Source: an uncultured Candidatus Saccharibacteria bacterium (GTDB lineage Bacteria; Patescibacteriota; CAZHWT01). Taken from it: a DNA stretch of 64,000 bases. The notes under the pieces were generated by a model that searched no databases, was not told the DNA's origin, and saw only the letters and a program-made list of their open reading frames with translations. Within the stretch, counting starts at the first letter, position 1; every line of letters starts with the position of its first letter. Both the position numbers and the translations under genes were made by a program. Where the stretch lies: NCBI GenBank assembly GCA_964554805.1, contig CAZKPX010000001.1, positions 124,818 through 188,817 on the forward strand, written 5' to 3'. This document shows positions 5,556-61,442 of the stretch, in pieces.

Positions 5556-6237
5556 GGCGAGGTCCTCCTTGTCGACGAGCTGGTTGTGGAGCAGATGAGT
5601 CTACATTCTGAGCCTGATCCTTATCGCGATGGATCCAAACCTTAACACCGATGGTGCCATAGGAGGTCATAGCTGTGTCGGAAGCGAAGTCGATATTGGC
5701 ACGAAGGGTGTGGAGTGGGATAGTGCCGATACTCTTTTTCTCACTTCGAGCAATATCAGCGCCATTGAGACGACCGCTGATCATAATCTTGACTCCCTTG
5801 GCGCCTGCTGACATGGTGCGCTCGGCAGTCATGTTAATAGCACGACGAGGGGACATACGACGCTCAATCATCTCAGCAACATTGCGGGCTACCAACGTAG
5901 CGTACAAATCAGGGCGACGGACTTCAATGATGTTGAGCTTGAGCTTTTCACCATTTAGGCGAGACTGCAATTCAGCCTTAAGAGCTTCGGAGCTAGCACC
6001 GCCTCGACCAATAACCATACCTGGCTTGGCGACGTGGACATTGATAGTAATTTCGTTCACAGAACGCTCGATCTCAACACGCTGACAACCAGCATTCTTG
6101 AGCTTTTTGGTGATGTAATCACGCAATTCCAAATCCTTGTGCAACAACTCAACAAATCGCTTGCTGTCGAACCAGGTTGAACTCCAGTTTTTGGTTAAAG
6201 CTAAGCGAAGGCCTAGCGGGTGTGTTTTATGACCCAT
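5548..6237 (-). CDS. rpsC: 30S ribosomal protein S3
   Basis: [12 protein letters not shown]... KH domain followed by the S3 C-terminal domain. Confidence 0.9.
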
Positions 6238-6719
6238 TATTCTGTACCTTTTTCTGTGCTGCTTTTAGCAGCGGTGACGCGCGACGAGCGACGAGCGACG
6301 GGTTTGGTTTTCTTGTCGCTTGTTGCTTGTTGCTTGTTGCTTGCTTTTGCTTCGGCTAAGGCGGCGCGGCGCTTGCCGAGAATCAGTGGCTCATCTGTCA
6401 ATATGACGCGGACATGAGATGTGCGCTTCATTATAGACATGCCACGACCGCGAGAAGCTGCGCGCATTCTCTTGAGTGTTGGCCCTTCGCCAATTTCAAG
6501 AGTACGGATCCGCAGATTGCTCACAGGTAACTGATGATTGTTAGTAGCGTTTGCAATTGCAGATTGTATCACATCTTGGACAGTTTTGGCAGCCCTCAAA
6601 TTCATGAGGCTCAAAGCGTTGACGGCTTCGGTTGGTGAAAGGTCACGAACTGCAGTGGCTACAAGGCGAACCTTGCGTGGCGACTGACGGACGTACCGAG
6701 CGGAGGCAACAACGTTCAT
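6237..6719 (-). CDS. rplV: 50S ribosomal protein L22 with basic C-terminal extension
   Basis: L22 core. The C-terminal tail is encoded by the GCGACGAG repeat region at 6271-6345. Confidence 0.85.
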   Translation of the reverse strand: MNVVASARYVRQSPRKVRLVATAVRDLSPTEAVNALSLMNLRAAKTVQDVIQSAIANATNNHQLPVSNLRIRTLEIGEGPTLKRMRAASRGRGMSIMKRTSHVRVILTDEPLILGKRRAALAEAKASNKQQATSDKKTKPVARRSSRVTAAKSSTEKGTE

Positions 6720-14102: not shown

Positions 14103-14537
14103 TTAGGAAGCCTTGGCTCCCTTTACTACTTCAACCTTCTTGGCGCCATATAGTGAACGAGACTGACGACGCTTTTCAACGCCCTTGGCATCGAGAACAC
14201 CACGAATAATGTGATACTTCACACCTGGCAAATCTTTAACACGACCGCCGCGAACAAGAACGATTGAGTGTTCCTGTAGGTTGTGGCCTTCGCCTGGAAT
14301 GTAGGCAGTAACCTCTTGCTTGTTGGACAAGCGAACACGAGCAACCTTACGCAAAGCTGAGTTAGGCTTTTTTGGAGTCATGGTTTTGACGATGGTGCAG
14401 ACACCGCGCTTTTGGGGGTTGGTGGTAACACTGCTCTTGCGCTTGTTAGAGTTGTAACTACGACGCAGGGCTGCAGCCTTGACTTTGGTATTTTTGCTGG
14501 AACGTCCTTTGCGGACAAGTTGGTTAATTGTTGGCAT
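14103..14537 (-). CDS. rpsL: 30S ribosomal protein S12 (144 aa, with an internal basic insertion)
   Basis: [12 protein letters not shown]... and the [26 protein letters not shown] motifs. Confidence 0.9.
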
Positions 14538-14718: not shown

Positions 14719-14750
14719 GAGCGACGAGCGACAGGCTACGGGCGACGGGG
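14719..14750. repeat. Copy of the dispersed GCGACGAGCGACRGG heptad-repeat element
   Basis: GAGCGACGAGCGACAGGCTACGGGCGACGGGG. Related copies lie at 6271-6302, 34489-34520, 50001-50038, 51860-51889 and 60165-60194. Confidence 0.6.
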
Positions 14751-31012: not shown

Positions 31013-32203
31013 TTAAAGGTATTTGGCTACATTTGCATAGTGCTCACTCAGAGTCTCAGCATAATACACATTTCCATCACTATCATGCAAGTAGTAAAGG
31101 TATGGTGTGTCTTTTGGCATGGCTACTGCCTTGATGGCTTCGAGGCTGGGATTGGCAATTGGAGCGGGCGGAAGACCCACATTTCGACGGGTATTATAGG
31201 GTGATGGGGTGGCCAGATCCACCTCGGTGATAGCATGTCTCCACCAGGTCTTTTCGGCATTTGAATAGCCGAGGAAATACTGAATGGCTGCATCAGCCCC
31301 AAGTATTTCTCCGGTACGTAGGCGGGTTAGCATGATATCGCCGATAATTGGTCGTTCGTCTCCTGAATATGATTCTCGCTCAATAATAGCAGCTAGGATC
31401 AACGCTTGGTACTCAGTCAGATTCTGCTTGGCAAAGCCGGCTTGAACATCTGGGGTAACCTTTTTAAGGTAATTGTCTAGCATTTTGACAATAAGCTCTT
31501 GGGCGGTGGCGTCACTGTCGATGTGATAGGTATCAGGAAACAAGTAACCCTGGAGGCTGGAGGCTGGAGGCAGTCGATTGCCTAGTTTTTGGCGGAGGGC
31601 GGCGTTTGGGGTAAGGGCAAGATCCGAAAATTCCTTGCCGGTAAAGCTGATTTTGCCTTGCTGATACTGTTTATCTATTTCTTCGGCTAATTCTTCTCGT
31701 CGCCAGCCTTCCGGGAAGGTGATGATGGCTTGTTGTCGTTCAGCAAGCGATAGTCGGTCGGTTAAATCTTTCATTGAAATATTTTGAGGGATGGAAAAGT
31801 TGCCGGCTTGAATGGCGCTCTTGGGATTGAGGCGCAGATACATCTTAAAATACTCAATATTGGCAATTAATCTGGCTTGCAGCAATTGCTGCGATATCTG
31901 ATCGGCAGTTACGCCGGGCTCAATAGTCAAGGCAACCGGCTGGCCGGACGGCTGAGCAGGAGTGTAGGCAGCTTGGTAATACTGATAGCCGAACCAACCA
32001 GCGATGGCTATAGCTAGGATAGCTACGGCGGCGATTGCTAGGCCAATCCATTTGAAGAGCGCGCGTCTAGGTTTGGAGACTGGAGGCTGGAGGCTGGAGG
32101 CTGGGTTGGAAAATTCTAGTGATGGCATACTTGATGACTCTGATGGTGATTGGATGGGGTCTGGATTGGTTGGGGTATTTGGTTCGAGGTTACTATTATT
32201 CAT
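31013..32203 (-). CDS. mltG: YceG/MltG-like endolytic transglycosylase with a Pro/Ser-rich N-terminus and TM anchor
   Basis: Single TM anchor, then a C-terminal YceG-like domain (ITFPEGWRREE..., GLPPAPIANPS). Adjacent to ruvX, as commonly seen. Confidence 0.55.
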   Translation of the reverse strand: MNNSNLEPNTPTNPDPIQSPSESSSMPSLEFSNPASSLQPPVSKPRRALFKWIGLAIAAVAILAIAIAGWFGYQYYQAAYTPAQPSGQPVALTIEPGVTADQISQQLLQARLIANIEYFKMYLRLNPKSAIQAGNFSIPQNISMKDLTDRLSLAERQQAIITFPEGWRREELAEEIDKQYQQGKISFTGKEFSDLALTPNAALRQKLGNRLPPASSLQGYLFPDTYHIDSDATAQELIVKMLDNYLKKVTPDVQAGFAKQNLTEYQALILAAIIERESYSGDERPIIGDIMLTRLRTGEILGADAAIQYFLGYSNAEKTWWRHAITEVDLATPSPYNTRRNVGLPPAPIANPSLEAIKAVAMPKDTPYLYYLHDSDGNVYYAETLSEHYANVAKYL

Positions 32204-32609: not shown

Positions 32610-32828
32610 TACCTGTATTGTACAACACTCTTGGGATTGAAGGTAGGAGGTGGGAGGTGGGAGGTGGGGCGAACTGGTACGGGTGACGAGCACGGGTAAA
32701 GAATCACTATCCATGTATTGACGCGTACTCGTCCTTGTTGCTCGCCCTACAACAACCTCCTACCTTCCACCTTCTGATCTGGGTTATTGCAGCTGGACTA
32801 ATTGTGGATAAAGGGCTAAAATGCGCCC

Positions 32829-34484
32829 ATGTCACAATCAGTGGGGCTAGGCAAGCCTGGCCAAAAACATGGGCTGCCTGAATCTAGCTTTACCCTCGGT
32901 CATACCGGATCTTCTGGGCAGATTTCTCCTGTTATTCAACAATTTATAGATTTACGCCAAACCTTGATTGGTCAGGCCGGATCCAAACAGCCGATGGTCG
33001 AGGTTAATGAGGCAGTAGGCATGTGGGCGTTTGCCTATGAGAAACTGCGCAATAGTGTTGAATATCGCGAAGAGACGGTATTGCTTCGAGCAGCTATTAA
33101 ACGTATTTTGAAACGACGACTGAGCCCTTTATGGAACTATGAATCTACTGCCAGCGCGCTGGTAAGAGAATTGATCTGGGCTCGATATTTGAAGAATGAT
33201 GCCGTGCCTCAGTCTAAAGTCGAAGAGATTGAGAAGTTGTTGGCCAAATATAGCGTATTGCGGCAAGCTATGGTGGGCAACAAAGAGGCGGAGGAATGGG
33301 AAGATTGGATATTGGGTATTGCGGCTTGTGATATTGAGCAGGTGTTGCTGAGTCGACAAGCTAGTTATGCCCTGGCAGAAGTGATGTTGCTGTGGTTGAA
33401 AGATAACATGGTGGTCAAGGGGATGCCGGCTGGAGATGTCGAGTTGCAATTGTATCTGGCGGTACACCGAACATTGCTCAAATCTGATCGCAGTCTATTA
33501 AACTATCATTTATTTTTGATAAATGTAGCTGGCTGGCATCAAGCTGACGAGAAAAAGGCTTTGGAGGTTGCTAAACAGCTGGCCTCAATACGCAAGAGAT
33601 TGGATGAGCAGCTTAACTACGAACATGGCCAGGCTTTGGCTAGAGCGGTTAAGAAGCAGACCCCACCTTTTATTGTACTGGATGATATAGTCAGCGCTAA
33701 TCTGGAGATGGCTACTGCGAATGTAGGAGATGCCGACACTCTTGATAAGAAGGTTGAAACGGTTTGCCAAAGCCGCTATCGGCAAATTGGCCAGCGTATC
33801 AGGACGGCTATTTTCCGAAGTATTATTTATATCTTTATTACCAAAGTTGGCTTGGCGCTATTGCTTGAAGTGCCGTTTGATAATTATTTTTATGGTGAGA
33901 TCCATTGGCCTCAACTGGCTTTTAATATTGCCTTTCCCCCACTGTTTATGGCTATTCTAGGTCTGAGCATCAAGACGCCGAGCGATAAAAATACAGAGGT
34001 CATAGGGCAAAAATTGCTGCGAATTGTGCAAGGGCTGCCTGATAAAGAGGTAATTAATCTGGATAATGGCTCATCACGGGCATCCGCTTGGTCGTGGATT
34101 TTCTTTGTAATATCTGCCGCGACATTTATTGGCGTATCGCTGCTGCTGTGGCAGTTCGACTTTACCATCATGGGCATTGGCTTATTCTTGTTCTTCTTCT
34201 GCGTGGTGGTGTTCTTTACCTATCGGGTGAGGCAGATTGCCCGCGAGATGAGCGTTATTCGGGAGAAGGAAAACTTTATAGAAAGTTGGATTACGATTAT
34301 TACTTTGCCATTTTTGGCACTTGGTTATCGATTATCAACCGAGTTCGGCAAGATCAATGTGACAACCTTTATTCTGGATGTATTGTTGGAAGCACCGTTT
34401 AAATTTATTCTGGATATGGCTGAAAGCTGGGTGAGTTTTGTTCGAACTAAACGGGATGAAGTGATTGATCGGCATGATTACTGA
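32829..34484 (+). CDS. Hypothetical protein (551 aa): soluble N-terminal domain of about 330 aa plus a C-terminal multi-TM domain
   Basis: Long ORF with no family recognised. It is followed by a GCGACGAG repeat and a hairpin. Confidence 0.5.
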   Translation: MSQSVGLGKPGQKHGLPESSFTLGHTGSSGQISPVIQQFIDLRQTLIGQAGSKQPMVEVNEAVGMWAFAYEKLRNSVEYREETVLLRAAIKRILKRRLSPLWNYESTASALVRELIWARYLKNDAVPQSKVEEIEKLLAKYSVLRQAMVGNKEAEEWEDWILGIAACDIEQVLLSRQASYALAEVMLLWLKDNMVVKGMPAGDVELQLYLAVHRTLLKSDRSLLNYHLFLINVAGWHQADEKKALEVAKQLASIRKRLDEQLNYEHGQALARAVKKQTPPFIVLDDIVSANLEMATANVGDADTLDKKVETVCQSRYRQIGQRIRTAIFRSIIYIFITKVGLALLLEVPFDNYFYGEIHWPQLAFNIAFPPLFMAILGLSIKTPSDKNTEVIGQKLLRIVQGLPDKEVINLDNGSSRASAWSWIFFVISAATFIGVSLLLWQFDFTIMGIGLFLFFFCVVVFFTYRVRQIAREMSVIREKENFIESWITIITLPFLALGYRLSTEFGKINVTTFILDVLLEAPFKFILDMAESWVSFVRTKRDEVIDRHDY

Positions 34485-34488
34485 TTGC

Positions 34489-34520
34489 AAGCGACGAGCG
34501 ACGTGCGACAGGCGACGAGG
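34489..34520. repeat. Copy of the GCGACGAGCGACGTG... heptad-repeat element
   Basis: GCGACGAGCGACGTGCGACAGGCGACGAGG, immediately after the stop of the 551-aa gene. Confidence 0.6.
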
Positions 34521-34545
34521 TTGAGTTTGAAATATTTTGATGTGG

Positions 34546-34579
34546 TACGAAAAAGCGCTTGGATTGGTATCCAAGCGCT
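34546..34579 (-). terminator. Terminator of the tRNA cluster: 9-bp perfect hairpin AGCGCTTGG-loop-CCAAGCGCT followed by TTTTTCG on the minus strand
   Basis: Inverted repeat seen directly. It may also terminate the convergent 551-aa gene. Confidence 0.55.
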
Positions 34580-34610
34580 GTGGCCGAAATGGCCGGTGTC
34601 TCTGACCTTG

Positions 34611-34681
34611 AGCGGATGAGAGGATTCGAACCTCCAGCCTTCCCAGGAGTCGGGATGCTCTGCCTTTTGAGCTTCATCCGC
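34611..34681 (-). tRNA. tRNA-like gene with a non-canonical anticodon arm (4-bp stem, loop GACUCCU); isotype unassigned, possibly a pseudo-tRNA
   Basis: Perfect 7-bp acceptor stem (GCGGATG/CATCCGC). D arm GCTC-AAAAGGCA-GAGC. T arm GGAGG-TTCGAAT-CCTCT. The anticodon region is 2 nt short and lacks U33 and R37. Confidence 0.5.
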
Positions 34682-34697
34682 ACTTCCTCATGAAGGG

Positions 34698-34773
34698 CGC
34701 CCGCAGAGGGATTTGAACCCCCGATCTGCTCTTTACGAAAGAGCTGCTCTAGTCCAGGCTGAGCCACACGGGC
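34698..34773 (-). tRNA. tRNA-Thr (anticodon CGU)
   Basis: 76-nt cloverleaf. Acceptor GCCCGTG/TGCGGGC, anticodon stem GCTCT/AGAGC, loop TTCGTAA, T loop TTCAAAT. No encoded CCA. Confidence 0.8.
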
Positions 34774-34817
34774 GATATGCCGACTTGCTTTATGCTCTGG
34801 CGAAACCTGAGCAGTAG

Positions 34818-34891
34818 TGGGCGAGAAAGGATTCGAACCTCTGACCTCAGAACTGTCAGTCCTGCGCTCTTACCATCTGAGCTACACGCCC
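34818..34891 (-). tRNA. tRNA-Val (anticodon GAC)
   Basis: 74-nt cloverleaf. Acceptor GGGCGTG/CTCGCCC, D arm GCTC-AGATGGTAA-GAGC, anticodon loop CTGACAG, T loop TTCGAAT. Confidence 0.85.
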
Positions 34892-35211
34892 GTCTCCGTT
34901 TTGCCTTGGCTATATTGGCCTGGGCACATTTTCTTAGGGGAGGTAGTTGAGGAATACTCCTCAACTCCTCCTGCATTTACGCTCAACGATAACAGATAGC
35001 ATCGTGCATCAACAAACGATTTTCTCGGGGAAGACCTCGTTGGATGCTGGACCTATCTGCTGCTTCCGCTGTTCCGAGACGGCGCGCGAGCGTGTCTGAA
35101 TCTTATATCATGTTTATAAAATAGCTGTCAACAAGATGTTTGCACTACAATTAGTTGCATCGCATTGGTGACGAGGACGAGGAATGCCAATTTAAAAGCA
35201 CTTACGAGCCA

Positions 35212-38079: not shown

Positions 38080-38284
38080 ATGAGTATCGCAATTGATACT
38101 GTTGTTTATATATTAAAGCATTTTTGGGGGGTAAGGGGCAAGGTGAAGGATTTGGAGTGGTGATGAGGATGGGTGACGAGGACGAGTTTGTATAGTTAAA
38201 TTTGACAGAGTACTGGTTTGTAAAAGCGAGACACCCCCGGCGACAGTGTTGTCGACGGGGGTGGAAGTTTTAGCAATGACCCTG

Positions 38285-39237: not shown

Positions 39238-39611
39238 AAGCTTCCACTCTGCACCTGCAGGGATTACTTATGTACATTTTTATTATATCAACCATTGAGC
39301 TGTTTGTCAGGTACTATAGGTCTTATCTGTATAAATTAATGGTCTGTCTTCGCTGTCATCCTGAACTTGTTGGCTTCGCTTTCAAAATGCGCAGGATCCG
39401 TAGATAGTGGCGATATAGAATGATTCTAAACGAGAACTGCAGCGAGCTGCGAATAAATCCAAACAGGACGGACATGACATGGTTAGATTGCCGCGCTTCG
39501 TTCGCAATGACGGCAGAACAAAATGCAGCTGGATTGCCGCGCTGCGCTCGCAATGACACTTATAAATGGTGCCTGCTCTCTATTCTCTGCTCTCTGCTCT
39601 CTGTTCTCTGC

Positions 39612-41555
39612 TTACTGCAAAACCGCTTTGATGCGGACGACGTCTCGGGAGATTTTTTCGTCTTTTTGGATGGTAAACTTGCCTTCGATAAGGTTGGTAT
39701 TAGCTATGTGAGGGCCGCCGCAGAATTCTCGGGAATAAACTTGTTCGCGGGGGTCAATAGACTCAACTTGAGTGGCTTGATTGTTCTCGTTTGTAGTTGA
39801 CTTCTGTGATCCACCGATTGAGTAGACTTTAACTGTATCGCCGTATTTTTCGCCGAAGAGGCCGATGGAGCCGGATTTTTGGGCTTCTTGTAGCGGCAGG
39901 ATGGCATAGGAAACTGGTAAGGCTTCGGTTATTTTTTGATTGACGATGTCTTCTACTTGTTGCTTTTGCTCCGGAGTTAAGCGGTTTTCGGAAGTGAAAT
40001 CGAAGCGGAGTCGTTCAGGTGTAATATTGGACCCGCGCTGGGCAATGGTGTCCCCTACTACGTCTCGCAAAGCCTGTTGAAGGAGATGGGTTGCAGTATG
40101 ATACTGAACTTCTTTGAAACTGTCTCCGCCGAGTCCACCTTTGAACATGCCGGCTGAACCTTGGCGAGATAGTTCTTGGTGCTTAGTAAATAGTTCCTGG
40201 TATTTGTCTTGGATTTCCAAGCGATCATCGATTGAATATTGGTGAACATTTTCATTTAGTTCATCAATAAAGATGTCAGCTGGGAGACCGAAGGTTTGGA
40301 AGAAGTCAAAAGCCTTGGCTGCTACTTCATCTAATGTGGGTGTTTGACCGCTTAGATTTTTAGTGTATTTTTCAACTTCTTTTAATCCCCTATCGAGAGT
40401 TTGCAAGAATTTCTGCTCTTCTTCGACAAGCTGGTTGAGAATATTGTCACCCACTACTTGAGGATAGGCTTCGGCATATATATTTTGAATAGCCTTGCCG
40501 ACTTCATGTAAAAATGGCTTGTCTATACCGAGTTTCCGACCTTGTCCGATGGCACGTCGTATAACGCGGCGGAGAACATAGCCTTGAGTTTTGTTTGAAG
40601 GCGTTACGCCGTCAGACAATAACCAGATGGCGGCCTTAAGATGGTCTGCGATGACTCTGTAGGAGTATTCATTGCCCTGGTATGCTCCCAGATTGGCAAC
40701 GTTTTCTACGGCTTCAATGATGGGCCAGAATAGGTCGGTTTTAAATACATCCGGAGTATTCTGCTGGGCCGCAAGCATGCGCTCCAAGCCTCCACCAAAA
40801 TCAATATTCTTTTGAGGAAGTTGTTTAAAGCTGCCATCAGCTTGTTTTTGGTATTGCATGAAGACGTTATTGCCGATTTCGAGGTAGCGACCACAGTCGC
40901 AGTTGGGGTGACAATGAGGACCAAATTCTGGGGTATGCTCCACGTCTTCAAATTCATAGAATATTTCTGAGTCTGGGCCACCTGGCTCACCGACTGGCAT
41001 CTTGTCTGGAGTACCAGAGCGGGACCACCAATTCTTTTTGGCACCATAACTAAAGATTCGACCACCTTGCATGCCTTGCTGTTCAGCATTGTCGATGACT
41101 TTGGCATCTATGCCAACCGAAGCGTATAAATCTTCCCAAAGCATAATAGCTTCTTGATCTCGGTCAATGCCATTCGATCCGGCGAAGACGCTGACATATA
41201 ATTTGTGAGTATCTAGGCCGACTTCTTGAGTTAAAAATTCAAACATCCACTGCAACTGCTCTGTCTTGAAATAATCGCCGAGACTCCAGTTGCCCAACAT
41301 CTCGAAGACAGTGGTGTGGCGATTGTCGCCGACTTCTTCAATATCCTGGACGCGAAAACATCGCTGACTGTCGGCGATGCGGGTTCCTTGAGGATGAGCT
41401 TCGCCCAGTAGATATGGCAACATGGGCTGCATTCCGGATCCAGTAAAAAGGGTAGTCGGATCGTTGTCTGGCACTAATGGTGCCGATGGGACAATGGCGT
41501 GCTGCTTTGATTTATAAAAATCTAGATATTTTTGGCGAAGTTCATTTCCGGTCAT
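39612..41555 (-). CDS. alaS: Alanine--tRNA ligase (short form without C-Ala domain); start at the internal MTGNELRQKY
   Basis: N-terminal class-II catalytic domain (FTGSGMQPM, RCFRVQDIEEVG, WSLGDYFK) and an editing domain with HxxxH...CGGPH. Confidence 0.9.
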   Translation of the reverse strand: MTGNELRQKYLDFYKSKQHAIVPSAPLVPDNDPTTLFTGSGMQPMLPYLLGEAHPQGTRIADSQRCFRVQDIEEVGDNRHTTVFEMLGNWSLGDYFKTEQLQWMFEFLTQEVGLDTHKLYVSVFAGSNGIDRDQEAIMLWEDLYASVGIDAKVIDNAEQQGMQGGRIFSYGAKKNWWSRSGTPDKMPVGEPGGPDSEIFYEFEDVEHTPEFGPHCHPNCDCGRYLEIGNNVFMQYQKQADGSFKQLPQKNIDFGGGLERMLAAQQNTPDVFKTDLFWPIIEAVENVANLGAYQGNEYSYRVIADHLKAAIWLLSDGVTPSNKTQGYVLRRVIRRAIGQGRKLGIDKPFLHEVGKAIQNIYAEAYPQVVGDNILNQLVEEEQKFLQTLDRGLKEVEKYTKNLSGQTPTLDEVAAKAFDFFQTFGLPADIFIDELNENVHQYSIDDRLEIQDKYQELFTKHQELSRQGSAGMFKGGLGGDSFKEVQYHTATHLLQQALRDVVGDTIAQRGSNITPERLRFDFTSENRLTPEQKQQVEDIVNQKITEALPVSYAILPLQEAQKSGSIGLFGEKYGDTVKVYSIGGSQKSTTNENNQATQVESIDPREQVYSREFCGGPHIANTNLIEGKFTIQKDEKISRDVVRIKAVLQ

Positions 41556-44464: not shown

Positions 44465-44640
44465 TCATGAGTCAAAGGGCAAAGGTCAAATCTAGCAAGC
44501 ATGGGAGAGTTAAGGCAAAAATCAAAAGGCAAAGGGCAAAAGTTAAGCTTTGAAAGTTAAATGTTTAACCACGACATAAAATAAACTTTATACTTTTGAT
44601 TTTTATTTTTGCCTTTTGACTTTGGACCTTTGACCTTACT
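44465..44640. repeat. Imperfect inverted repeat built from AAAGGCAAAGGGCAAAAG / CTTTTGCCTTTTGACTTT units (5' region of the DUF948 gene)
   Basis: Left arm 44469-44542 and right arm 44593-44637 are reverse-complementary with G/T substitutions. The same unit occurs at 55672-55763. Confidence 0.4.
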
Positions 44641-45652
44641 TAACATATTCTTTCTCGATAACTTGGTTGGGTTGACCGAGTAGGCCTTGGTCTATGCCGT
44701 GAAGTAAAACGCGAGTAGAGCCGGCGTTGCCGGATTTGAGCCGAATTTTGGTATTGGCGCTAAATGATTGGCTGGATGAAGGGAGCAGTAAACCGCTGAA
44801 TAACTGTTTGTCATCACCACTAACCTCTATCCAGGCTGGTGAGGCACCGATGACTACCTCGATGTTGACATTGGATAAGGTGGCTGAAGCAGTAGACTGA
44901 GTGGGCGTTGGACGTCCAGCAGATGATGAAGCTTGGATAGTAGCCTGGCTGGCAAGTTTGACAGGTCCGACCACGGTTCTTTCGACGACAGTTGATTTGC
45001 CTAGCTTGTTGACTGCTTCAAAGCGAAGAGTGTTGCTGCCAGTAGCCAGGCCTACGGTAAATTTAAATTTGCCATCTGGATCCAATTGCACTGATTGGCC
45101 ATTGAGAGTTAGGGTGGAGTCAGGATTGGTTTGGCCCTCAACTTGGAGCTGGCCATTGGTTGAGGTAGAGTTTGATTGCGGTTGAGATAAAGATAAATCG
45201 GGATTTAGGGCTACAGAAACATACTGATTGTAGCTGTAGCCGATGACTACCAAAATTGCCAGGGTTAAAAATCCTACGACCACCCATCCGGGAGTAATTT
45301 TTGATTTCTTTGGCTCAATGGGAGAAAGTGGTTGACTAAGCTGTTGCTGTTCGCGCTGTTCATCATACTCACGTCGGAAAAAAGGCAGTACTTCATGCTC
45401 GTCTAGGCCAACATATAAGGCATAGGCTTTGATGAAACCTTTTAAATAAAGTGGATCGGTTAGGCCAAAAAACTTGCCCTGCTCAATGGATTGAAGCATG
45501 GGAACTCTGACTTTAATGGCTTTGGATACGTCTTCGAGCGATCTGCCTTTAGCTTCACGAGCAGCTCTCAAAATATCACCCGTACGTTTGGTGTTGAGGG
45601 TCGAGGGGTTATTTTTCTTAGTTTTAGAGGGAATGCGAGTCTGAGTGGGCAT
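44636..45652 (-). CDS. rodZ: RodZ-like cytoskeleton protein (N-terminal XRE-type HTH, TM, C-terminal beta-rich domain)
   Basis: ILRAAREAKGRSLEDVSKAIKVRVPMLQSIEQGKF..., then a single TM and a Ser/Thr-rich periplasmic region. Confidence 0.6.
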   Translation of the reverse strand: MPTQTRIPSKTKKNNPSTLNTKRTGDILRAAREAKGRSLEDVSKAIKVRVPMLQSIEQGKFFGLTDPLYLKGFIKAYALYVGLDEHEVLPFFRREYDEQREQQQLSQPLSPIEPKKSKITPGWVVVGFLTLAILVVIGYSYNQYVSVALNPDLSLSQPQSNSTSTNGQLQVEGQTNPDSTLTLNGQSVQLDPDGKFKFTVGLATGSNTLRFEAVNKLGKSTVVERTVVGPVKLASQATIQASSSAGRPTPTQSTASATLSNVNIEVVIGASPAWIEVSGDDKQLFSGLLLPSSSQSFSANTKIRLKSGNAGSTRVLLHGIDQGLLGQPNQVIEKEYVK

Positions 45653-49903: not shown

Positions 49904-52081
49904 TTATTCAGCCTGAGGTTGAGTGTCTGTTGGGGCGTCGGATGAGTCGACTGAATCAGGGGCGATGGCGGCTGATTTGGGGGCCTTGGTCGCTTCGGTG
50001 GCGGAGCGACGAGCGACAGGCGACGAGCGACGAGCGGGTGCTGGCTTGGCGGCTGCGCTGGCTGGGGCGGTGATTGGGCGGCGAGGAGTCGAGGTGCCGG
50101 TGCCGCGCATTTCGATGAGAACTGGCAGAACAATTGGGGTTCGGTCGGTTTCTTGCTTGAAGTACTTGCCGAGACGATCTTGAATGCGAGAGCGGATAGT
50201 TCCCCACTCTTGGTTCTTGGTTTGCGGATCGGTGATAACAGAGCGAGCAATAGAACGAGCTTCAGCCATTAACTTTTCGTTGAGACGAGCGTAAACAAAG
50301 CCGCGAGTTTGGACTTCGACTTCGCCAATCAGTTCTTTATCTTTGTTGAGTGTCGCACCGACGATGAAGACACCGGAATCGGCTAGCTGTTTGCGATCGG
50401 CAATGACAACTTCGCCAATGTCCCCTACTCCCAGACCATCGACCATGACGGAGGTATATGGGTGCTCTTCGCCCAGCTTGGCGTTGCCTTGGTTATCAAA
50501 GAGGACTTCCTGACCCGCGACAACCGTGAAAATGTGACCTTCAGGGTATCCCATTTTTTGGGCCATCTGCTTGTAGGCCTTGAGTTGACGCATCTGACCA
50601 GAGATAGGTACTAGGTATTTGGCTTTGACTAAAGCAATAGTTGTTTTGAGTTCTTCGGCGGCGGCATGTCCGGATACGTGAAGATTGTTCATAATATCGG
50701 AATAAGCGATGGTGGCGCCCAGGTCGGTCAGCTCGTCAATGATATCGTTGATGCCGCTTTCGCTACCAGGAATTGGATCGGCGGAGAAAATGACTTTGTC
50801 TTCCGTCTTAATGGTAAAGAGCTTGTGTTGACCTGATGTCAGTCGGGCTAAGGCCGAACCTTCTTGGCCATACGCACCAGTTAGAATGATTAATTGCTGA
50901 TCATCTGGGTAATCAGAGATAGCAGTATCGCGAACGACAACGCCGTCAGGGATTTGAGCATAGCCCAAACGTGTGGCGATGCCCATGACGTTATCAATGC
51001 TTCGACCAGCAAAGGCAACCTTGCGGTTGTAGCGCATGGCCACATTGATGGCTTGCTGCATACGGGTAACGTTGGAAGAGATGGTTGTTAGGAAGACGCG
51101 GCCTTTGGCGTTGCGCATTTCGGTATCCAGGCGATCTTCTACAACTGCTTCGGATGGGGTGTAGCCGGGTTTTTCGACACGTAGACAGTCGGACATGAGG
51201 GCCAGAACGCCTTCGCCACCGGCGCGAGCCAATTTGTCGACTTCGATAATAGTACCGTCAACGCTAGTCCAGTCATACTTGTAGTCACCGGTGTGGATAG
51301 TTGATCCAATTGGCGTCTTGATGACATAGCCAAAGGTGTCTGGGATGGAGTGGTTGACGCGGAATGGATTGAGGGTGAAATGACCGAAGGTGTATTCTTG
51401 GTCTGGCTCTATTTCGTGTAAGTCTAATTTGGCTCGGAACTCTGATAGTTTGCCTTTGATTAATTCAAGGGCAAAGCGAGGAGCGTAGATTGGAACATTC
51501 ATTTTGGGTGCTAAATAAGGGACAGCACCGATATGATCCTCGTGACCATGGGTGATAACGAGGGCCTTGATGCGATGTAGTTTATCCTTTAGATAGGTCA
51601 TATCTGGGATAACAATATCGATACCAAGCATGTCGCTAGAAGGGAAGCCCATGCCGCAGTCAACAACAATAATGTCGTTGCCATACTCGTAGACAAACAT
51701 GTTTTGGGTGACAAAACCATTACCTCCTAATGGTAAGACTTTTAGGACTGGGGCGCCTTCAGGATTGAAGGACCCTTGCTCGTTGAGAGACTGTTGTGCC
51801 ATACGAGCACGATTGATTGGCTGATGGCGATTGCGTCGGACTGGAGCGCCGCTGTTGGCGGGAGCGACAGGCGACGTGCGACGAGTAGGAGCAGCACCTG
51901 TACTACCTACGGCTTTGGGGGCTGCAGGTCGAGCAGTTGGGCTGGTAGCACCTGTTGGGGTGGTTGGAGTCGAAGCTGAAGTAGGAGCGCTTGGCTTTGA
52001 GCCGGCGCTGGCATTGATGCCATTGTTGGTCCGAGGACGGCCGCCTGATCTATTTGGGTTTGGTCGGAAATATTCTGACAT
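49904..52081 (-). CDS. rnj: Ribonuclease J (beta-CASP metallo-beta-lactamase) with low-complexity N- and C-terminal extensions
   Basis: VITHGHEDHIGAVPYL motif and a beta-CASP region. Ser/Pro/Ala/Arg-rich tails of about 130 aa (N) and about 90 aa (C) contain GCGACGAG repeats at 51860-51889 and 50001-50038. Confidence 0.85.
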   Translation of the reverse strand: MSEYFRPNPNRSGGRPRTNNGINASAGSKPSAPTSASTPTTPTGATSPTARPAAPKAVGSTGAAPTRRTSPVAPANSGAPVRRNRHQPINRARMAQQSLNEQGSFNPEGAPVLKVLPLGGNGFVTQNMFVYEYGNDIIVVDCGMGFPSSDMLGIDIVIPDMTYLKDKLHRIKALVITHGHEDHIGAVPYLAPKMNVPIYAPRFALELIKGKLSEFRAKLDLHEIEPDQEYTFGHFTLNPFRVNHSIPDTFGYVIKTPIGSTIHTGDYKYDWTSVDGTIIEVDKLARAGGEGVLALMSDCLRVEKPGYTPSEAVVEDRLDTEMRNAKGRVFLTTISSNVTRMQQAINVAMRYNRKVAFAGRSIDNVMGIATRLGYAQIPDGVVVRDTAISDYPDDQQLIILTGAYGQEGSALARLTSGQHKLFTIKTEDKVIFSADPIPGSESGINDIIDELTDLGATIAYSDIMNNLHVSGHAAAEELKTTIALVKAKYLVPISGQMRQLKAYKQMAQKMGYPEGHIFTVVAGQEVLFDNQGNAKLGEEHPYTSVMVDGLGVGDIGEVVIADRKQLADSGVFIVGATLNKDKELIGEVEVQTRGFVYARLNEKLMAEARSIARSVITDPQTKNQEWGTIRSRIQDRLGKYFKQETDRTPIVLPVLIEMRGTGTSTPRRPITAPASAAAKPAPARRSSPVARRSATEATKAPKSAAIAPDSVDSSDAPTDTQPQAE

Positions 52082-52084
52082 ACT

Positions 52085-52180
52085 ACTTTGAAGGAGAAAG
52101 GAGAGGGATCCGCCAGTTGGCGGAGTGAGAAGTTCTTTTTAACTTCTTTTTCTGTTATCTCTTTTCTCTTATTATTCTTT
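52085..52180 (-). promoter_or_regulatory. GA/CU-rich leader element with two short hairpins immediately 5' of rnj
   Basis: GGAGAAAGGAGAGGG, CCGCCAGTTGGCGG hairpin, and GAGTGAGAAGTTCTTTTTAACTTCTTTTTCTG. Confidence 0.35.
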
Positions 52181-55655: not shown

Positions 55656-55671
55656 ACTTGGTTGTGGGGCA

Positions 55672-55763
55672 GAAATCAAAGGGCAAAAGGCAAAGGGCAA
55701 AAATGTGTCAAGTTATATTTTTGACTTTCATTTTTGACTTTTGCTTTTTGACTTTTGACTTTC
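55672..55763. repeat. AAAGGGCAAAAGGCAAAGGGCAAAAA / TTTTTGACTTTTGCTTTTTGACTTTTGACTTT inverted-repeat element in the pnp 5' leader
   Basis: Arms at 55672-55705 and 55716-55763. Same unit family as 44465-44640. Confidence 0.4.
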
Positions 55764-55880
55764 TAAGCCCCTTCTCCTTTAGGATAATGGATTTAATTCT
55801 GGATTAGCTAGAATATAGGTTAATTGCTCTTAGAATGACACAGCCTGCAGTTGAAGGCAGGCTGAGCAAGAAATTTTGAT

Positions 55881-58618: not shown

Positions 58619-60145
58619 TTACAGTGCTTCGATGATGTCGCCGGATTGGAATTCGAAGCCTGGTTTGAGGAGAATACCGCATTCGGTATTTTTCTTGGCT
58701 TCACCAACCTTTTCGACGCCGTGGCGGATTTCACTGATCACGCCTTCTTCAAGCACGACTTCATCGCCGCGAGTGACATTTACTTTCCAGTTGCGACGCA
58801 TCAGGCCGTCGGTAATGCGACAACCAGCCACGATATCTCCAGAGCGTAGTTCGAAGGTTTGCAGGACTTCGGCGCGACCTTTGATAGGGACTTCTTTTTC
58901 GGGTATGCCGCCGGCCAAAACGTCTTCGATATCTTCGAGGAGCTGGTAGATGATTTCGTATTCCTGAACCATGACTTTTTCGAAGTCGATGGCCCGCTTG
59001 GCTGCTGGGTCTACTTTGACTCTAAAGGCCAGCAATAGTGATCCGGATGTGGCGGCCAGCATAACATCTGACTCTGATACGCTACCGGTGCCAGCAAGAA
59101 TAAATCGCGGACGATCACCTGCTTCAGACTGGATTTGTTCAATGCTGCTGACTATAGCTTCCAAGGAGCCTTGGGTGTCAGCCTTGAGGATGAGTTTGAG
59201 TTCGCGGACTTCGCCGGTATTGGCAAAGAGGGCTGTCAGATCGGTTGGATCATAGGCAGCTGCTTCGATGGCATCTTGATCTTTGACTTCCTGTTCTTGG
59301 CGGGTCTTAGCAAGAGCCATAGCTTCTTTTTCACTAGCTACAACTTCAATAACTGCTCCGACGGACGGTACTGTCTTGAGACCTAAGATTTCTACGGGAG
59401 TAGATGGTCCTGCTTGACGAATTGATTGGTTTTGATCGCTAGTTAAGGCTCGGACCTTGCCAAACGATGTGCCTGAAATAATAACATCGCCCACTTTTAA
59501 GATGCCTTTTTGGACAATTACGTCGGCAATGGCGCCGCGCTTGGCATCTTGATTGCTTTCGACAACTATTGCCTGAGCAGGGCTGGTGGTGTCTGCTTGC
59601 AGCTCTTGTAATTCGGCCAGCAAGACTACCATTTCAAGTAATTCATCGATGCCGATGTTTTGGGTAGCAGAAGTTTGGACTAAGGGTACATTTCCGCCGT
59701 AGCCTTCTACTAGAACATTTTCTCGAGCTAGTTGCTCTTTGACGCGTTCAGGTTGAGCACCGACGGCATCTATTTTGTTCATAGCGACGATGATTGGTGC
59801 TTCGGCAGCTTGCGCATGGGAGATAGCTTCTTTGGTTTGAGGCATAACGCCGTCGTCAGCAGCCACTACCAAAATGACGATGTCGGTTAGCTTGGCACCG
59901 CGAGCGCGCATTTGAGTAAAGGCGGCGTGACCAGGAGTATCAATGAAAGTGATCGGATGACCATTCTTGGTGACTTGGTAGGCGCCGATGTGCTGTGTGA
60001 TACCGCCGGACTCACCGGCTGCTTGTTGAGTGCTGCGAATTGCATCGAGCAGGCTGGTTTTGCCATGATCGACGTGACCCATGATGGTGACGATGGGTGG
60101 GCGGGTTGAGGATTGGGTTGTAACTGTTTTGTCTTTTTTAGCCAT
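58619..60145 (-). CDS. infB: Translation initiation factor IF-2 (short form, 508 aa, lacking the N-terminal domains)
   Basis: G domain ([21 protein letters not shown]) followed by the beta-barrel and C-terminal domains. Confidence 0.9.
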   Translation of the reverse strand: MAKKDKTVTTQSSTRPPIVTIMGHVDHGKTSLLDAIRSTQQAAGESGGITQHIGAYQVTKNGHPITFIDTPGHAAFTQMRARGAKLTDIVILVVAADDGVMPQTKEAISHAQAAEAPIIVAMNKIDAVGAQPERVKEQLARENVLVEGYGGNVPLVQTSATQNIGIDELLEMVVLLAELQELQADTTSPAQAIVVESNQDAKRGAIADVIVQKGILKVGDVIISGTSFGKVRALTSDQNQSIRQAGPSTPVEILGLKTVPSVGAVIEVVASEKEAMALAKTRQEQEVKDQDAIEAAAYDPTDLTALFANTGEVRELKLILKADTQGSLEAIVSSIEQIQSEAGDRPRFILAGTGSVSESDVMLAATSGSLLLAFRVKVDPAAKRAIDFEKVMVQEYEIIYQLLEDIEDVLAGGIPEKEVPIKGRAEVLQTFELRSGDIVAGCRITDGLMRRNWKVNVTRGDEVVLEEGVISEIRHGVEKVGEAKKNTECGILLKPGFEFQSGDIIEAL

Positions 60146-60164: not shown

Positions 60165-60194
60165 AGCGACGAGCGACGAGAACGAGCGACGAGG
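60165..60194. repeat. Copy of the GCGACGAGCGACGAG heptad-repeat element in the infB-nusA spacer
   Basis: AGCGACGAGCGACGAGAACGAGCGACGAGG. Confidence 0.6.
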
Positions 60195-60245: not shown

Positions 60246-61442
60246 TTAGCTTTGTTCGTTTTCTTCAGTAGATTCTTCGGTTGCTTGTTCGATATCATCG
60301 GCCAATTCTTCAACTACTTCTTCAGTAATGGTTGGTTCTTCTTCAGCGGCTTCGATGATGGCTTCGTCTAGTTCCTGGTCAGGATCTGGTTGAGTGGCTT
60401 GGGCTTCGACAGTGGCTTCGATGGAGGTTTCGTCGGAGACTCGGGTATCCTGGGCGTCTTGGGTATCCTGGTCATCTTGGGGGGCTGCAGAAACATCGGC
60501 GGCAGCGGTTTCGCCGCTGATGTCGATGCGGAAACCGGTTAGTTTGGCAGCCAGACGAACGTTTTGGCCTTCTTTGCCGATAGCCAGAGATAGCTGATCG
60601 TCCATGACGACAACTTTGGCTTCTTTGCCTTCGGTATCAACCTTGATGTCAATAGCTTTGGCTGGAGACAGGGCGGCTACGATGAAACGCTCTACATCTG
60701 GACTCCACAGAATAAGATCGAGCTTTTCACCGTTCAGTTCATTGGTGATAGCCTGGACGCGAACGCCTTTTTGACCAACACATGAACCGACTGGGTCGAC
60801 GCCTTCTTGGTTGGAGGTGACTGCTACCTTAGAGCGATTACCTGCTTCGCGGGCAATGGCTTTGATTTCAACTGCACCGGAGGCTACTTCTGGGACTTCT
60901 AGCTCAAATAGAGCAGCTAGCAGATTAGGATGTGAGCGGGATAGGATGATTTCCTGACCACGTGGACCATCTTTGATTTCTGAGACATAGACCTTTAAGC
61001 GCTGGTTGAGACGATAGTTTTCGCCTTGAGCTTGCTCTTGCGGAGGCATAATACCGATGGTACGACCGATGTCGAGCATCCAGTTTGGGCCTTCTTTGCG
61101 CTGGATCATGGCAGAGATAACGGTGCCGATTTTTTTGCCGTAGTCGTCCATGATGGCTTCTTTTTCGGCTTCACGGATGCGCTGGAGAATAACTTGCTTG
61201 GCGGTCTGGGCAGCAATGCGGCCAAACCCAGCAGGAGTTACATCTTTGCCATCGAGAAGAATGCGAACTTCGCCGGTGTCTGGATCGACATCAGCAATCA
61301 GTTCTTGTTCTTCGGTAATCTCGCCAAAATCGCGGCGATAGGCTGCTAACAAAGCATGACGAAGTGATTCTAAAATAATATTTGGATCGATGCCGCGCTC
61401 GGAAGCTACTTGATTGAGGGCGGCCATAAATTCTGTACGCAT
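60246..61442 (-). CDS. nusA: Transcription termination/antitermination factor NusA (no AR1/AR2; acidic C-terminal tail)
   Basis: N-terminal domain, S1, and two KH domains. The C-terminus is Glu/Asp-rich. Confidence 0.9.
   Translation of the reverse strand: MRTEFMAALNQVASERGIDPNIILESLRHALLAAYRRDFGEITEEQELIADVDPDTGEVRILLDGKDVTPAGFGRIAAQTAKQVILQRIREAEKEAIMDDYGKKIGTVISAMIQRKEGPNWMLDIGRTIGIMPPQEQAQGENYRLNQRLKVYVSEIKDGPRGQEIILSRSHPNLLAALFELEVPEVASGAVEIKAIAREAGNRSKVAVTSNQEGVDPVGSCVGQKGVRVQAITNELNGEKLDLILWSPDVERFIVAALSPAKAIDIKVDTEGKEAKVVVMDDQLSLAIGKEGQNVRLAAKLTGFRIDISGETAAADVSAAPQDDQDTQDAQDTRVSDETSIEATVEAQATQPDPDQELDEAIIEAAEEEPTITEEVVEELADDIEQATEESTEENEQS

Follow-up and report, generated by a model that had tools for sequence, protein, structure and literature searches.

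Heptanucleotides are the most abundant long simple-sequence repeats (LSSRs) in many bacteria, and a tentative explanation for this excess is that slippage is favoured by the length of the polymerase-DNA contact (Mrazek et al. 2007, as summarized in PMC4679880 and PMC4692102). Dispersed heptanucleotides of the short tandemly repeated repetitive (STRR) type were described in Calothrix PCC 7601 and Nostoc (Mazel et al. 1990, as summarized in PMC4692102). Heptamers of the form GGGAATC in Xanthomonas and GGGGAYT in Nostoc lie mostly in intergenic DNA, where some form inverted pairs with stem-loop potential (Rehm et al. 2015, PMC4692102). At a given intergenic site, close relatives can differ in both the length and the sequence of the repeat (PMC4692102). 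TAACTGA direct repeats, in sets of 2-6, are found in marine Beggiatoaceae, some Cyanobacteria and Bacteroidetes (MacGregor 2015, PMC4679880), where they occur in ribosomal-protein operons and, when coding, at protein peripheries (PMC4679880). First recognized in 1990, dispersed heptanucleotide repeats raise the questions of how they originate, how they reach many loci and why seven bases are preferred. Here we describe a family of GCGACGA tracts in a 64,000-nucleotide stretch (hereafter the window, to which all repeat counts for the source genome refer) from an uncultured Candidatus Saccharibacteria bacterium (contig CAZKPX010000001.1, positions 124,818 to 188,817), and show that spacers and gene edges in this organism and its near relatives are filled with arrays of ~3-6 units, built from many different heptamers. 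The tracts are best described as a further, species-specific case of the known dispersed heptanucleotide class, in a small-genome lineage of the candidate phyla radiation (CPR, or Patescibacteria). Our literature searches found no relevant report of heptamer repeats in CPR or Patescibacteria; the 'hypervariable' locus of Gracilibacteria is a 9-mer repeat.

GCGACGA tracts and other period-7 arrays

Searching the window with GCGACGAGCGACGAG, allowing up to 2 mismatches, returned 11 matches at six loci, all on the plus strand (6274-6302, 14721-14735, 34491-34519, 50006-50034, 51871-51885 and 60166-60180), against a mean of 0.13 expected from shuffles, none of 100 of which reached 11. These loci correspond to six GCGACGA/GCGACRG tracts that an earlier, sequence-only reading had picked out, every one of which we recover (Table 1). 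The two degenerate variants named in that reading also exist and have an exact 15-mer, GGTGACGAGGACGAG, in common, and the gene contexts it had assigned by eye (L22, rpsL, RNase J and infB-nusA) are those identified by Pfam, which was run on ten window proteins. An independent Logan assembly (L001) is identical base for base through the L22 tail, so the tracts are not assembly artefacts.

Each of the six copies is 30-38 nt long, with ~4 units, and has GCGACGRGG or something close to it at its end; Tandem Repeats Finder assigns period 7 and 3.6-4.7 copies to each site, with head-to-tail units that parse in register. The 22 full units in register are GCGACGA (12), GCGACAG (4), GCGACGG (2), GCGACGT (2), GTGACGC (1) and GCTACGG (1), and substitutions at successive unit positions number 0, 1, 1, 0, 0, 4 and 10 (P=1.6e-6 against a uniform distribution), leaving the GCGAC core almost invariant and the variation concentrated at positions 6-7. 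The recurrence of GCGACAG, a variant with two substitutions, in four of the six arrays (GCGACGT recurs in two) is evidence against independent growth of each array and in favour of common descent or an exchange of units. Beyond the heptads their flanks are unrelated, with no sequence common to the six copies. Single GCGACGA heptamers outside the tracts also favour the plus strand (13, against 4 on the minus strand), a surplus explained by the use of TCG, CGT, CGC, GTC and GCT codons on the minus strand.

The GCGACGA tracts are one family inside a general heptad phenomenon. Period 7 accounts for 22 of the 48 rows returned by Tandem Repeats Finder for the window, and a period scan gave seven strong runs at period 7, with the rest mainly at its multiples 14 and 21 and no such run in shuffles; other periods in the same scan yielded 0-2 runs each, and their shuffles essentially none. 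Exact 7-mer duplications occur at 19 places (3.3 expected) and exact triplications at five (0 expected), while exact duplications at periods 4, 5 and 8-12 stand at expectation. A more sensitive list holds 23 period-7 arrays of many unrelated units, on the plus strand GCGACGA, CTTGTTG, CTGGAGG, AGGTGGG, AGTGGCA, CTCTGCT, ATATGGG, CAAAGGG, TTTTGAC, AGTTTTG and others; members of the GCGACNN family occupy 6-8 sites in the window. About half of the period-7 arrays are intergenic, in a window whose coding share is ~85%, and those within genes lie mostly near gene ends (the L22 C-terminus, both termini of RNase J and the N-termini of YceG and RuvX), one YceG array, encoding a PPASSLQ loop, being internal.

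No common position relative to genes unites the six GCGACGA copies: one is upstream of a promoter, one beyond a terminator, one in a 5' leader and three in coding tails. The suggestion that copies mark boundaries between gene blocks holds only in part, for two copies at operon or convergent boundaries; one of the others lies inside the nusA-infB operon and three lie inside genes. The promoter-like site of rpsL is near-consensus (TTGACC-17-TATAAT at 14700-14672, minus strand), and the tract at 34489-34520 faces a minus-strand tRNA cluster, 34 nt beyond the terminator of that cluster.

Table 1. Repeat tracts of the GCGACGA family, the array paired with the first of them, and the genes named in the text, with positions in the 64-kb window
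Feature	Positions	Strand	Context
Tract, units GTGACGC, GCGACGA, GCGACGA, GCGACGG	6271-6302	+	L22 C-terminal tail, in frame; minus-strand reading PVARRSSRVTA
(CTTGTTG)4.6 array, partner of the 6271-6302 tract	6312-6343	+	encodes SNKQQATSDKK of the L22 tail
GCGACGA-family tract	14719-14750	+	intergenic; upstream of the rpsL promoter-like site, 18 nt from its -35 hexamer
GCGACGA-family tract	34489-34520	+	intergenic; starts 5 nt past the stop of a 551-aa plus-strand gene
GCGACGA-family tract	50001-50038	+	in frame, RNase J C-terminal tail, PARRSSPVARRSA
GCGACGA-family tract	51860-51889	+	in frame, RNase J N-terminal tail, PTRRTSPVAP
GCGACGA-family tract, one unit minus a base	60165-60194	+	nusA-infB spacer; ends ~20 nt upstream of the infB start codon
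Degenerate variant, GGTGACGAGGACGAG at 35167-35181	35166-35186	+	26 nt downstream of the stop of a 520-aa minus-strand gene
Degenerate variant, GGTGACGAGGACGAG at 38172-38186	38155-38190	+	intercistronic spacer
L22	6237-6719	-	Pfam
S12 (rpsL)	14103-14537	-	Pfam
RNase J	49904-52081	-	Pfam
IF-2 (infB)	58619-60145	-	Pfam
NusA	60246-61442	-	Pfam

Arrays of other units have their own settings. In YceG, CCTCCAG arrays (31550-31571 and 32074-32104) encode PASSLQ twice, in the N-terminal region and within the YceG domain region, and the same unit occurs in other genes of a near relative (L122); a CCCACCT array at 32641-32668 encodes PHLPPPTS at the RuvX N-terminus. A CTCTGCT/CTCTATT array with a higher-order period of 21 nt (39573-39612) begins 2 nt past the alaS stop codon, and arrays also adjoin stop codons at 34489 and 44607. 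Upstream of RNase J, TCTCCTTTCTCCTT (52082-52170) ends 9 nt before the ATG, and in L122 an (ATCCTAC/ATCCTAA)4 array (1830-1857) ends 6 nt before the start, in both cases with no evident Shine-Dalgarno sequence; these arrays are pyrimidine- or A-rich, in a layout that resembles the TAACTGA repeats of Beggiatoaceae. The tRNA cluster facing the 34489-34520 tract contains three genes by Rfam (34611-34891, minus strand), of which ARAGORN gives two (Thr-CGT and Val-GAC), and has a clean terminator at 34579-34554 (minus strand); because these occupy the region, the mechanically called open reading frames (ORFs) at 34447-34767 and 34749-34976 are spurious. Across the whole window, Rfam at gathering thresholds reported these three tRNAs and no other known RNA family.

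Unit turnover and protein tails among relatives

The propensity for heptad arrays is sharply bounded. Period-7 arrays number 3.6 per 10 kb in the window and 3.8, 3.6, 4.1 and 1.5 per 10 kb in near relatives L002, L122, L124 and L123, respectively, and 0.5 in a relative with 76% RNase J identity (L128); none occurs in the Saccharimonadales (L126) and Woykebacteria (L127) loci or in a 50-kb stretch of the S10-str region from E. coli (L129). Sixty-four distant RNase J loci (564 kb), taken as a negative control from a metagenome scan at 33-60% identity over the best segment, have 0.7 per 10 kb, and there period 7 is rarer than periods 6, 9 and 12. A repeat-prone clade that includes near relatives and leaves out distant ones offers a compact comparative system in which to seek a gene or repair defect correlated with heptad proneness.

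Within this clade the unit sequences turn over between species. The GCGACGA tract is absent from 57 kb of near relatives carrying the same genes, which have instead units such as TCGATTC, CAAGCAG, ATCCTAC, CTCCAGT, CTAAATC, CCTCCAG and GTCGACA, among others, and equivalent spacers (such as those before infB, before RNase J and between S15 and pnp) often hold different units in different species; L124, for example, has a different heptad array at the equivalent position before infB. These comparisons support the original description of a lineage-specific dispersed repeat family, present both in intergenic DNA and in frame inside genes. Between independent samples no array-length difference was found (window against L001, L124 against L125).

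The coding copies provide a clean example of 7-nt repeats, read in three phases, lengthening disordered tails of essential RNA-binding proteins. On the coding side the unit is TCGTCGC, which contains no stop codon in any of six frames, and because 7 is not a multiple of 3 an in-frame tract passes through all three phases every 21 nt, yielding A-R-R-S-S-P/L-V. The resulting peptide is disordered and rich in Arg, Ser, Ala and Val. The tails that receive it have a wider distribution than the tract. L22 proteins across Patescibacteria carry Lys/Ala-rich C-terminal tails of 30-80 residues, unrelated in sequence and without the GCGACGA repeat. RNase J has extensions of ~110 residues at the N-terminus (rich in Pro, Ser, Thr, Ala and Arg) and ~65 residues at the C-terminus, the former present in all relatives above ~62% identity, that is, in the whole near clade, and the latter confined to the three closest relatives; a typical Patescibacteria RNase J, at ~560 aa, has neither.

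Outside the tracts, tail-coding DNA shows no period-7 autocorrelation (0.24-0.31, equal to other lags), and the idea that the tails were built wholly from decayed heptads was rejected on this ground; in nucleotide alignments, relatives have ordinary, partly similar sequence at the orthologous tail sites. Since the tails occur in relatives that lack the repeat and show no period 7 beyond the tracts, the tracts were added to existing tails. The tails are older, with each tract adding ~7-13 residues of the ARRSSPV type, so that the proposed exaptation into protein tails stands as far as these few residues go and fails for the tails themselves, which preceded the tracts. The C-terminal tail of L122 RNase J carries a different array, (CTCCAGT)3.5, which is a 9-nt expansion of a CCTCCA seed left unexpanded in L123, and this comparison is direct evidence of heptad arrays growing in situ in these tails.

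L22 and RNase J have unnamed metagenomic proteins as their best matches, and their nearest named relatives, at 44-48% identity, belong to Woykebacteria, Saccharimonadales, Daviesbacteria, Taylorbacteria and Zambryskibacteria, all Patescibacteria. The gene order nusA, infB, S15, pnp, RNase J, ftsK, rodZ-like, alaS is common to the window, a Saccharimonadales contig and a Woykebacteria contig. A cyanobacterial origin, which the abundance of heptamers had suggested, was rejected because HIP1 (GCGATCGC) is present once in the window, rpoC is unsplit, and the affinities of L22 and RNase J are with Patescibacteria.

Heptad arrays were also seen further afield. A Candidatus Yanofskybacteria contig (MGKV01000008.1, L067), from an unrelated, distant Patescibacteria lineage, has eight period-7 arrays in 8 kb, including two of the (GCGACAA)4 type with a GCGAC core (1185-1210 and 1763-1791), in frame in a 1,168-aa ORF; this contig was picked from among the matches listed by the motif search itself (GCGACRRGCGACRRGCGAC against genome contigs) and is not an unbiased sample. 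Three phage contigs from IMG/VR, UViG_3300045008_000213, 3300045144_000112 and 3300045018_000028 (L196, L198 and L202), carry 9-16 heptad arrays per 6-15 kb, filling almost every intergenic spacer and in places grading from one unit into another; their units include TCGTCGC (the complement of GCGACGA) and CTAAATC, both also found in the window lineage. Their genes include a gpA terminase, a lambda-type portal and a Mu gpT-like head protein. In a search for their host, the phage collection yielded no match at the nucleotide level, and the relatives of the terminase, only ~30% identical, come from mixed hosts.

Paired arrays and competing explanations

Several heptad arrays occur in inverted pairs that fold into long hairpins. 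Folded on both strands, five of the six GCGACGA copies have no significant structure (z from -1.6 to +1.0), and the L22 copy is the only one that pairs, its partner being a separate CTTGTTG array: the sequence at 6271-6345 consists of GCGGTGACGCGCGACGAGCGACGAGCGACGGG, a 9-nt spacer and CTTGTCGCTTGTTGCTTGTTGCTTGTTGCTTGC, and its two arms form a 32-bp hairpin on the plus strand only. There the surrounding segment (6268-6348) reaches -47.2 kcal/mol (z -7.3), against -20.1 (z -1.9) on the minus strand. Corresponding values are -43.1 (z -6.5) and -29.1 (z -3.5) for the S15-pnp spacer (55668-55775), and -38.3 (z -5.4) and -32.4 (z -4.1) for a segment after the rodZ-like gene (44505-44645), although in tandem arrays one complementary unit pairs whole arrays, so that these z-scores make the evidence look more independent than it is. 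A stronger argument is that inverted pairs recur in several spacers and species: L002 has one upstream of rpsJ and L123 one between S15 and pnp, built from other units with complementarity kept.

All three hairpins are more stable on the plus strand, antisense to the genes. Plus-strand G-U pairs number 10 in the L22 hairpin and four and six in the other two, and the two most asymmetric hairpins have on the minus strand no G-U pairs and A-C mismatches at the corresponding positions. The sequence-only reading had proposed that G-U wobbles allow the CTTGTTG array and the GCGACGA tract to pair on the plus strand only, and so it proves. Such asymmetry would be the expected product of plus-strand C-to-T change in a former palindrome, which matches the plus-strand G+T excess; it could alternatively reflect selection against strong structure in sense mRNA, or a function on the plus strand. 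The window (48% G+C) is G- and T-rich on its plus strand throughout, and 53 of its 64 likely genes lie on the minus strand; either the lagging strand carries these genes or something else causes the skew. The minus-strand genes include the ribosomal-protein and rpoBC operons, opposite the G+T-rich strand. An antisense transcript carrying the L22 hairpin found no support, with no promoter-like or terminator-like site at 6000-6500.

The other pairs have further points of interest. In the pnp leader (55668-55775, plus strand), CAAAGGG/CAAAAGG and TTTTGAC/TTTTGCT arms form a long imperfect hairpin, and the orthologous spacer of L123 (3205-3300) has a hairpin of other heptads, AAAAATC against ATTCTTA/ACTTTTG; position and pairing are retained between the two while the sequence has turned over. 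The E. coli pnp leader contains a hairpin cleaved by RNase III, which the array hairpin between S15 and pnp recalls. A second inverted pair of the CAAAGGG and TTTTGMC families (44473-44637) lies directly past the stop of the rodZ-like gene (44636-45652, minus strand) and may be a 3' stabilizer or terminator-like hairpin.

We consider it probable that the GCGACGA tracts are a species-specific family of short tandem heptanucleotide repeats, of the STRR or LSSR kind, in a lineage prone to 7-base arrays. The STRR and heptameric LSSR features that were tested are all present: 7-nt head-to-tail units in at least two copies, unlinked loci, an excess of period 7, placement and turnover. Arrays would arise and grow by replication slippage or template switching in steps of 7 nt and be homogenized locally, with units exchanged or copied between loci, as the recurrence of GCGACAG in four arrays suggests. 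They would persist where extra sequence is tolerated, in intergenic DNA and disordered protein tails; a stop-free tract in frame extends the existing tails of the RNA-binding L22 and RNase J by a short, basic, disordered addition. The single-strand orientation would follow the strong plus-strand G+T excess, and the tracts most likely have no dedicated function.

Several points weigh against this account. Slippage alone fails to account for one unit at 6-8 unlinked sites, and the uneven substitutions (0, 1, 1, 0, 0, 4, 10) suggest either that the GCGAC core is constrained or that the process is a templated one. The near-uniform size of the copies is more element-like than microsatellite-like; no length polymorphism separates independent samples, hence ongoing slippage is not demonstrated; and the evidence comes from 64 kb of genome.

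Some of these same features would suit functional cis-elements, in which the GCGAC core, spaced at 7 nt, is a platform for a single-strand nucleic-acid- or DNA-binding factor affecting transcription, translation or mRNA stability. The core is kept while positions 6-7 vary, all copies have one orientation and a uniform size of ~4 units, and single copies precede the rpsL -35 hexamer (by 18 nt) and the infB start (by ~20 nt), the latter at a position where L124 has a different heptad array; arrays without a Shine-Dalgarno sequence adjoin the RNase J start in both the window and L122. There is also a precedent, S1, cold-shock or CsrA-type proteins having been proposed for the TAACTGA repeats of Beggiatoaceae (PMC4679880). 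We nevertheless regard this explanation as unlikely: the placement of the six copies with respect to genes follows no common pattern, 57 kb of close relatives with the same genes lack the family, and no candidate binding protein was identified. A broader and more speculative idea, to which we give little credence, is that heptad arrays, far from being passive microsatellites, are both product and target of a strand-specific process that this lineage shares with its phages. GCGAC-N2 units would be templated between loci, the G+T-rich strand would form functional paired-array hairpins, either in single-stranded DNA or in antisense RNA, and the process would continually supply essential proteins of a reduced genome with new terminal peptide sequence.

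The sequence-only reading had favoured a non-autonomous element resembling repetitive extragenic palindromes (REPs) or miniature inverted-repeat transposable elements (MITEs), spread by a transposase and later absorbed into genes. Dispersal to unlinked sites, uniform copy size and unit variants common to several copies would fit such an element, as would the long imperfect palindrome formed by the L22 copy and its partner array, and the density of TCGTCGC-containing arrays in the three phage contigs offers, in principle, a vehicle for transfer. Inspection of the six copies, however, revealed no terminal inverted repeats (TIRs), target-site duplications or conserved internal sequence other than the heptads, five of the six neither form palindromes nor fold, and no transposase was among the ten Pfam-scanned window proteins, the other window ORFs lying outside that scan. 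What would be left to mobilize amounts to a microsatellite alone, and many unrelated heptad arrays behave alike. The proposal is not supported and we think it very improbable; in annotation, such tracts should not be taken for mobile elements, nor the resulting Arg/Ser-rich peptides for conserved motifs.

Phase variation offers another parallel, since the hmw promoters of Haemophilus influenzae carry 7-bp repeats. The arrays would then be contingency loci, in which hypermutable repeats gain or lose units and so switch or tune genes; with a unit length indivisible by three, such changes would alter the reading frame of coding copies, and some copies lie in promoter or leader regions. That the genes concerned (L22, RNase J, rpsL and infB) are essential housekeeping genes, that slippage is suppressed by the shortness of the arrays and by the variant units that break them up, and that the arrays are identical in independent samples (two assembly pairs) together leave this scarcely credible. 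Chance, or a by-product of GC-rich codon repeats, has in its favour the fairly common single GCGACGA heptamers on the plus strand outside the tracts, and is refuted by the excess of matches, the period-7 runs and the counts of exact duplications and triplications, with three copies non-coding and codon repeats incompatible with period 7.

Comparison with known repeat systems

Like the cyanobacterial STRRs, the GCGACGA family consists of tandem 7-nt units, few per array, at unlinked loci, in a setting of several families that vary between strains and have no known function. It differs from them in its GCGACNN unit, in belonging to the phylum Patescibacteria, in the sizeable share of copies in frame in the tails of housekeeping proteins and in the restriction of the sampled copies to one strand. 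With the Xanthomonas and Nostoc heptamers the window has in common a strong heptameric excess, a mainly intergenic placement and some inverted pairs, but those units are G-tracts able to form G-quadruplexes, whereas GCGACGA has neither runs of G nor a predicted structure of its own.

The short repeats known as REPs, or bacterial interspersed mosaic elements (BIMEs), and MITEs are, like the window arrays, short, dispersed and mostly extragenic, and the paired arrays of the window give intercistronic hairpins as REPs do. A REP is an imperfect, stem-loop-forming palindrome of ~20-40 nt, which five of the six GCGACGA copies are not, and the TIRs, target duplication and internal sequence that define a MITE are missing from the family. 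The TAACTGA repeats resemble the window heptads in their 2-6 copies, their patchy phylogeny and their presence in ribosomal-protein operons, with copies before start codons and coding copies at protein peripheries. Yet TAACTGA contains stop codons in the forward orientation and lies mostly in 5' leaders, whereas GCGACGA is open in six frames and shows no preference in its placement around genes: one of its six copies, that of infB, is in a leader, and it is other heptad families that adjoin starts.

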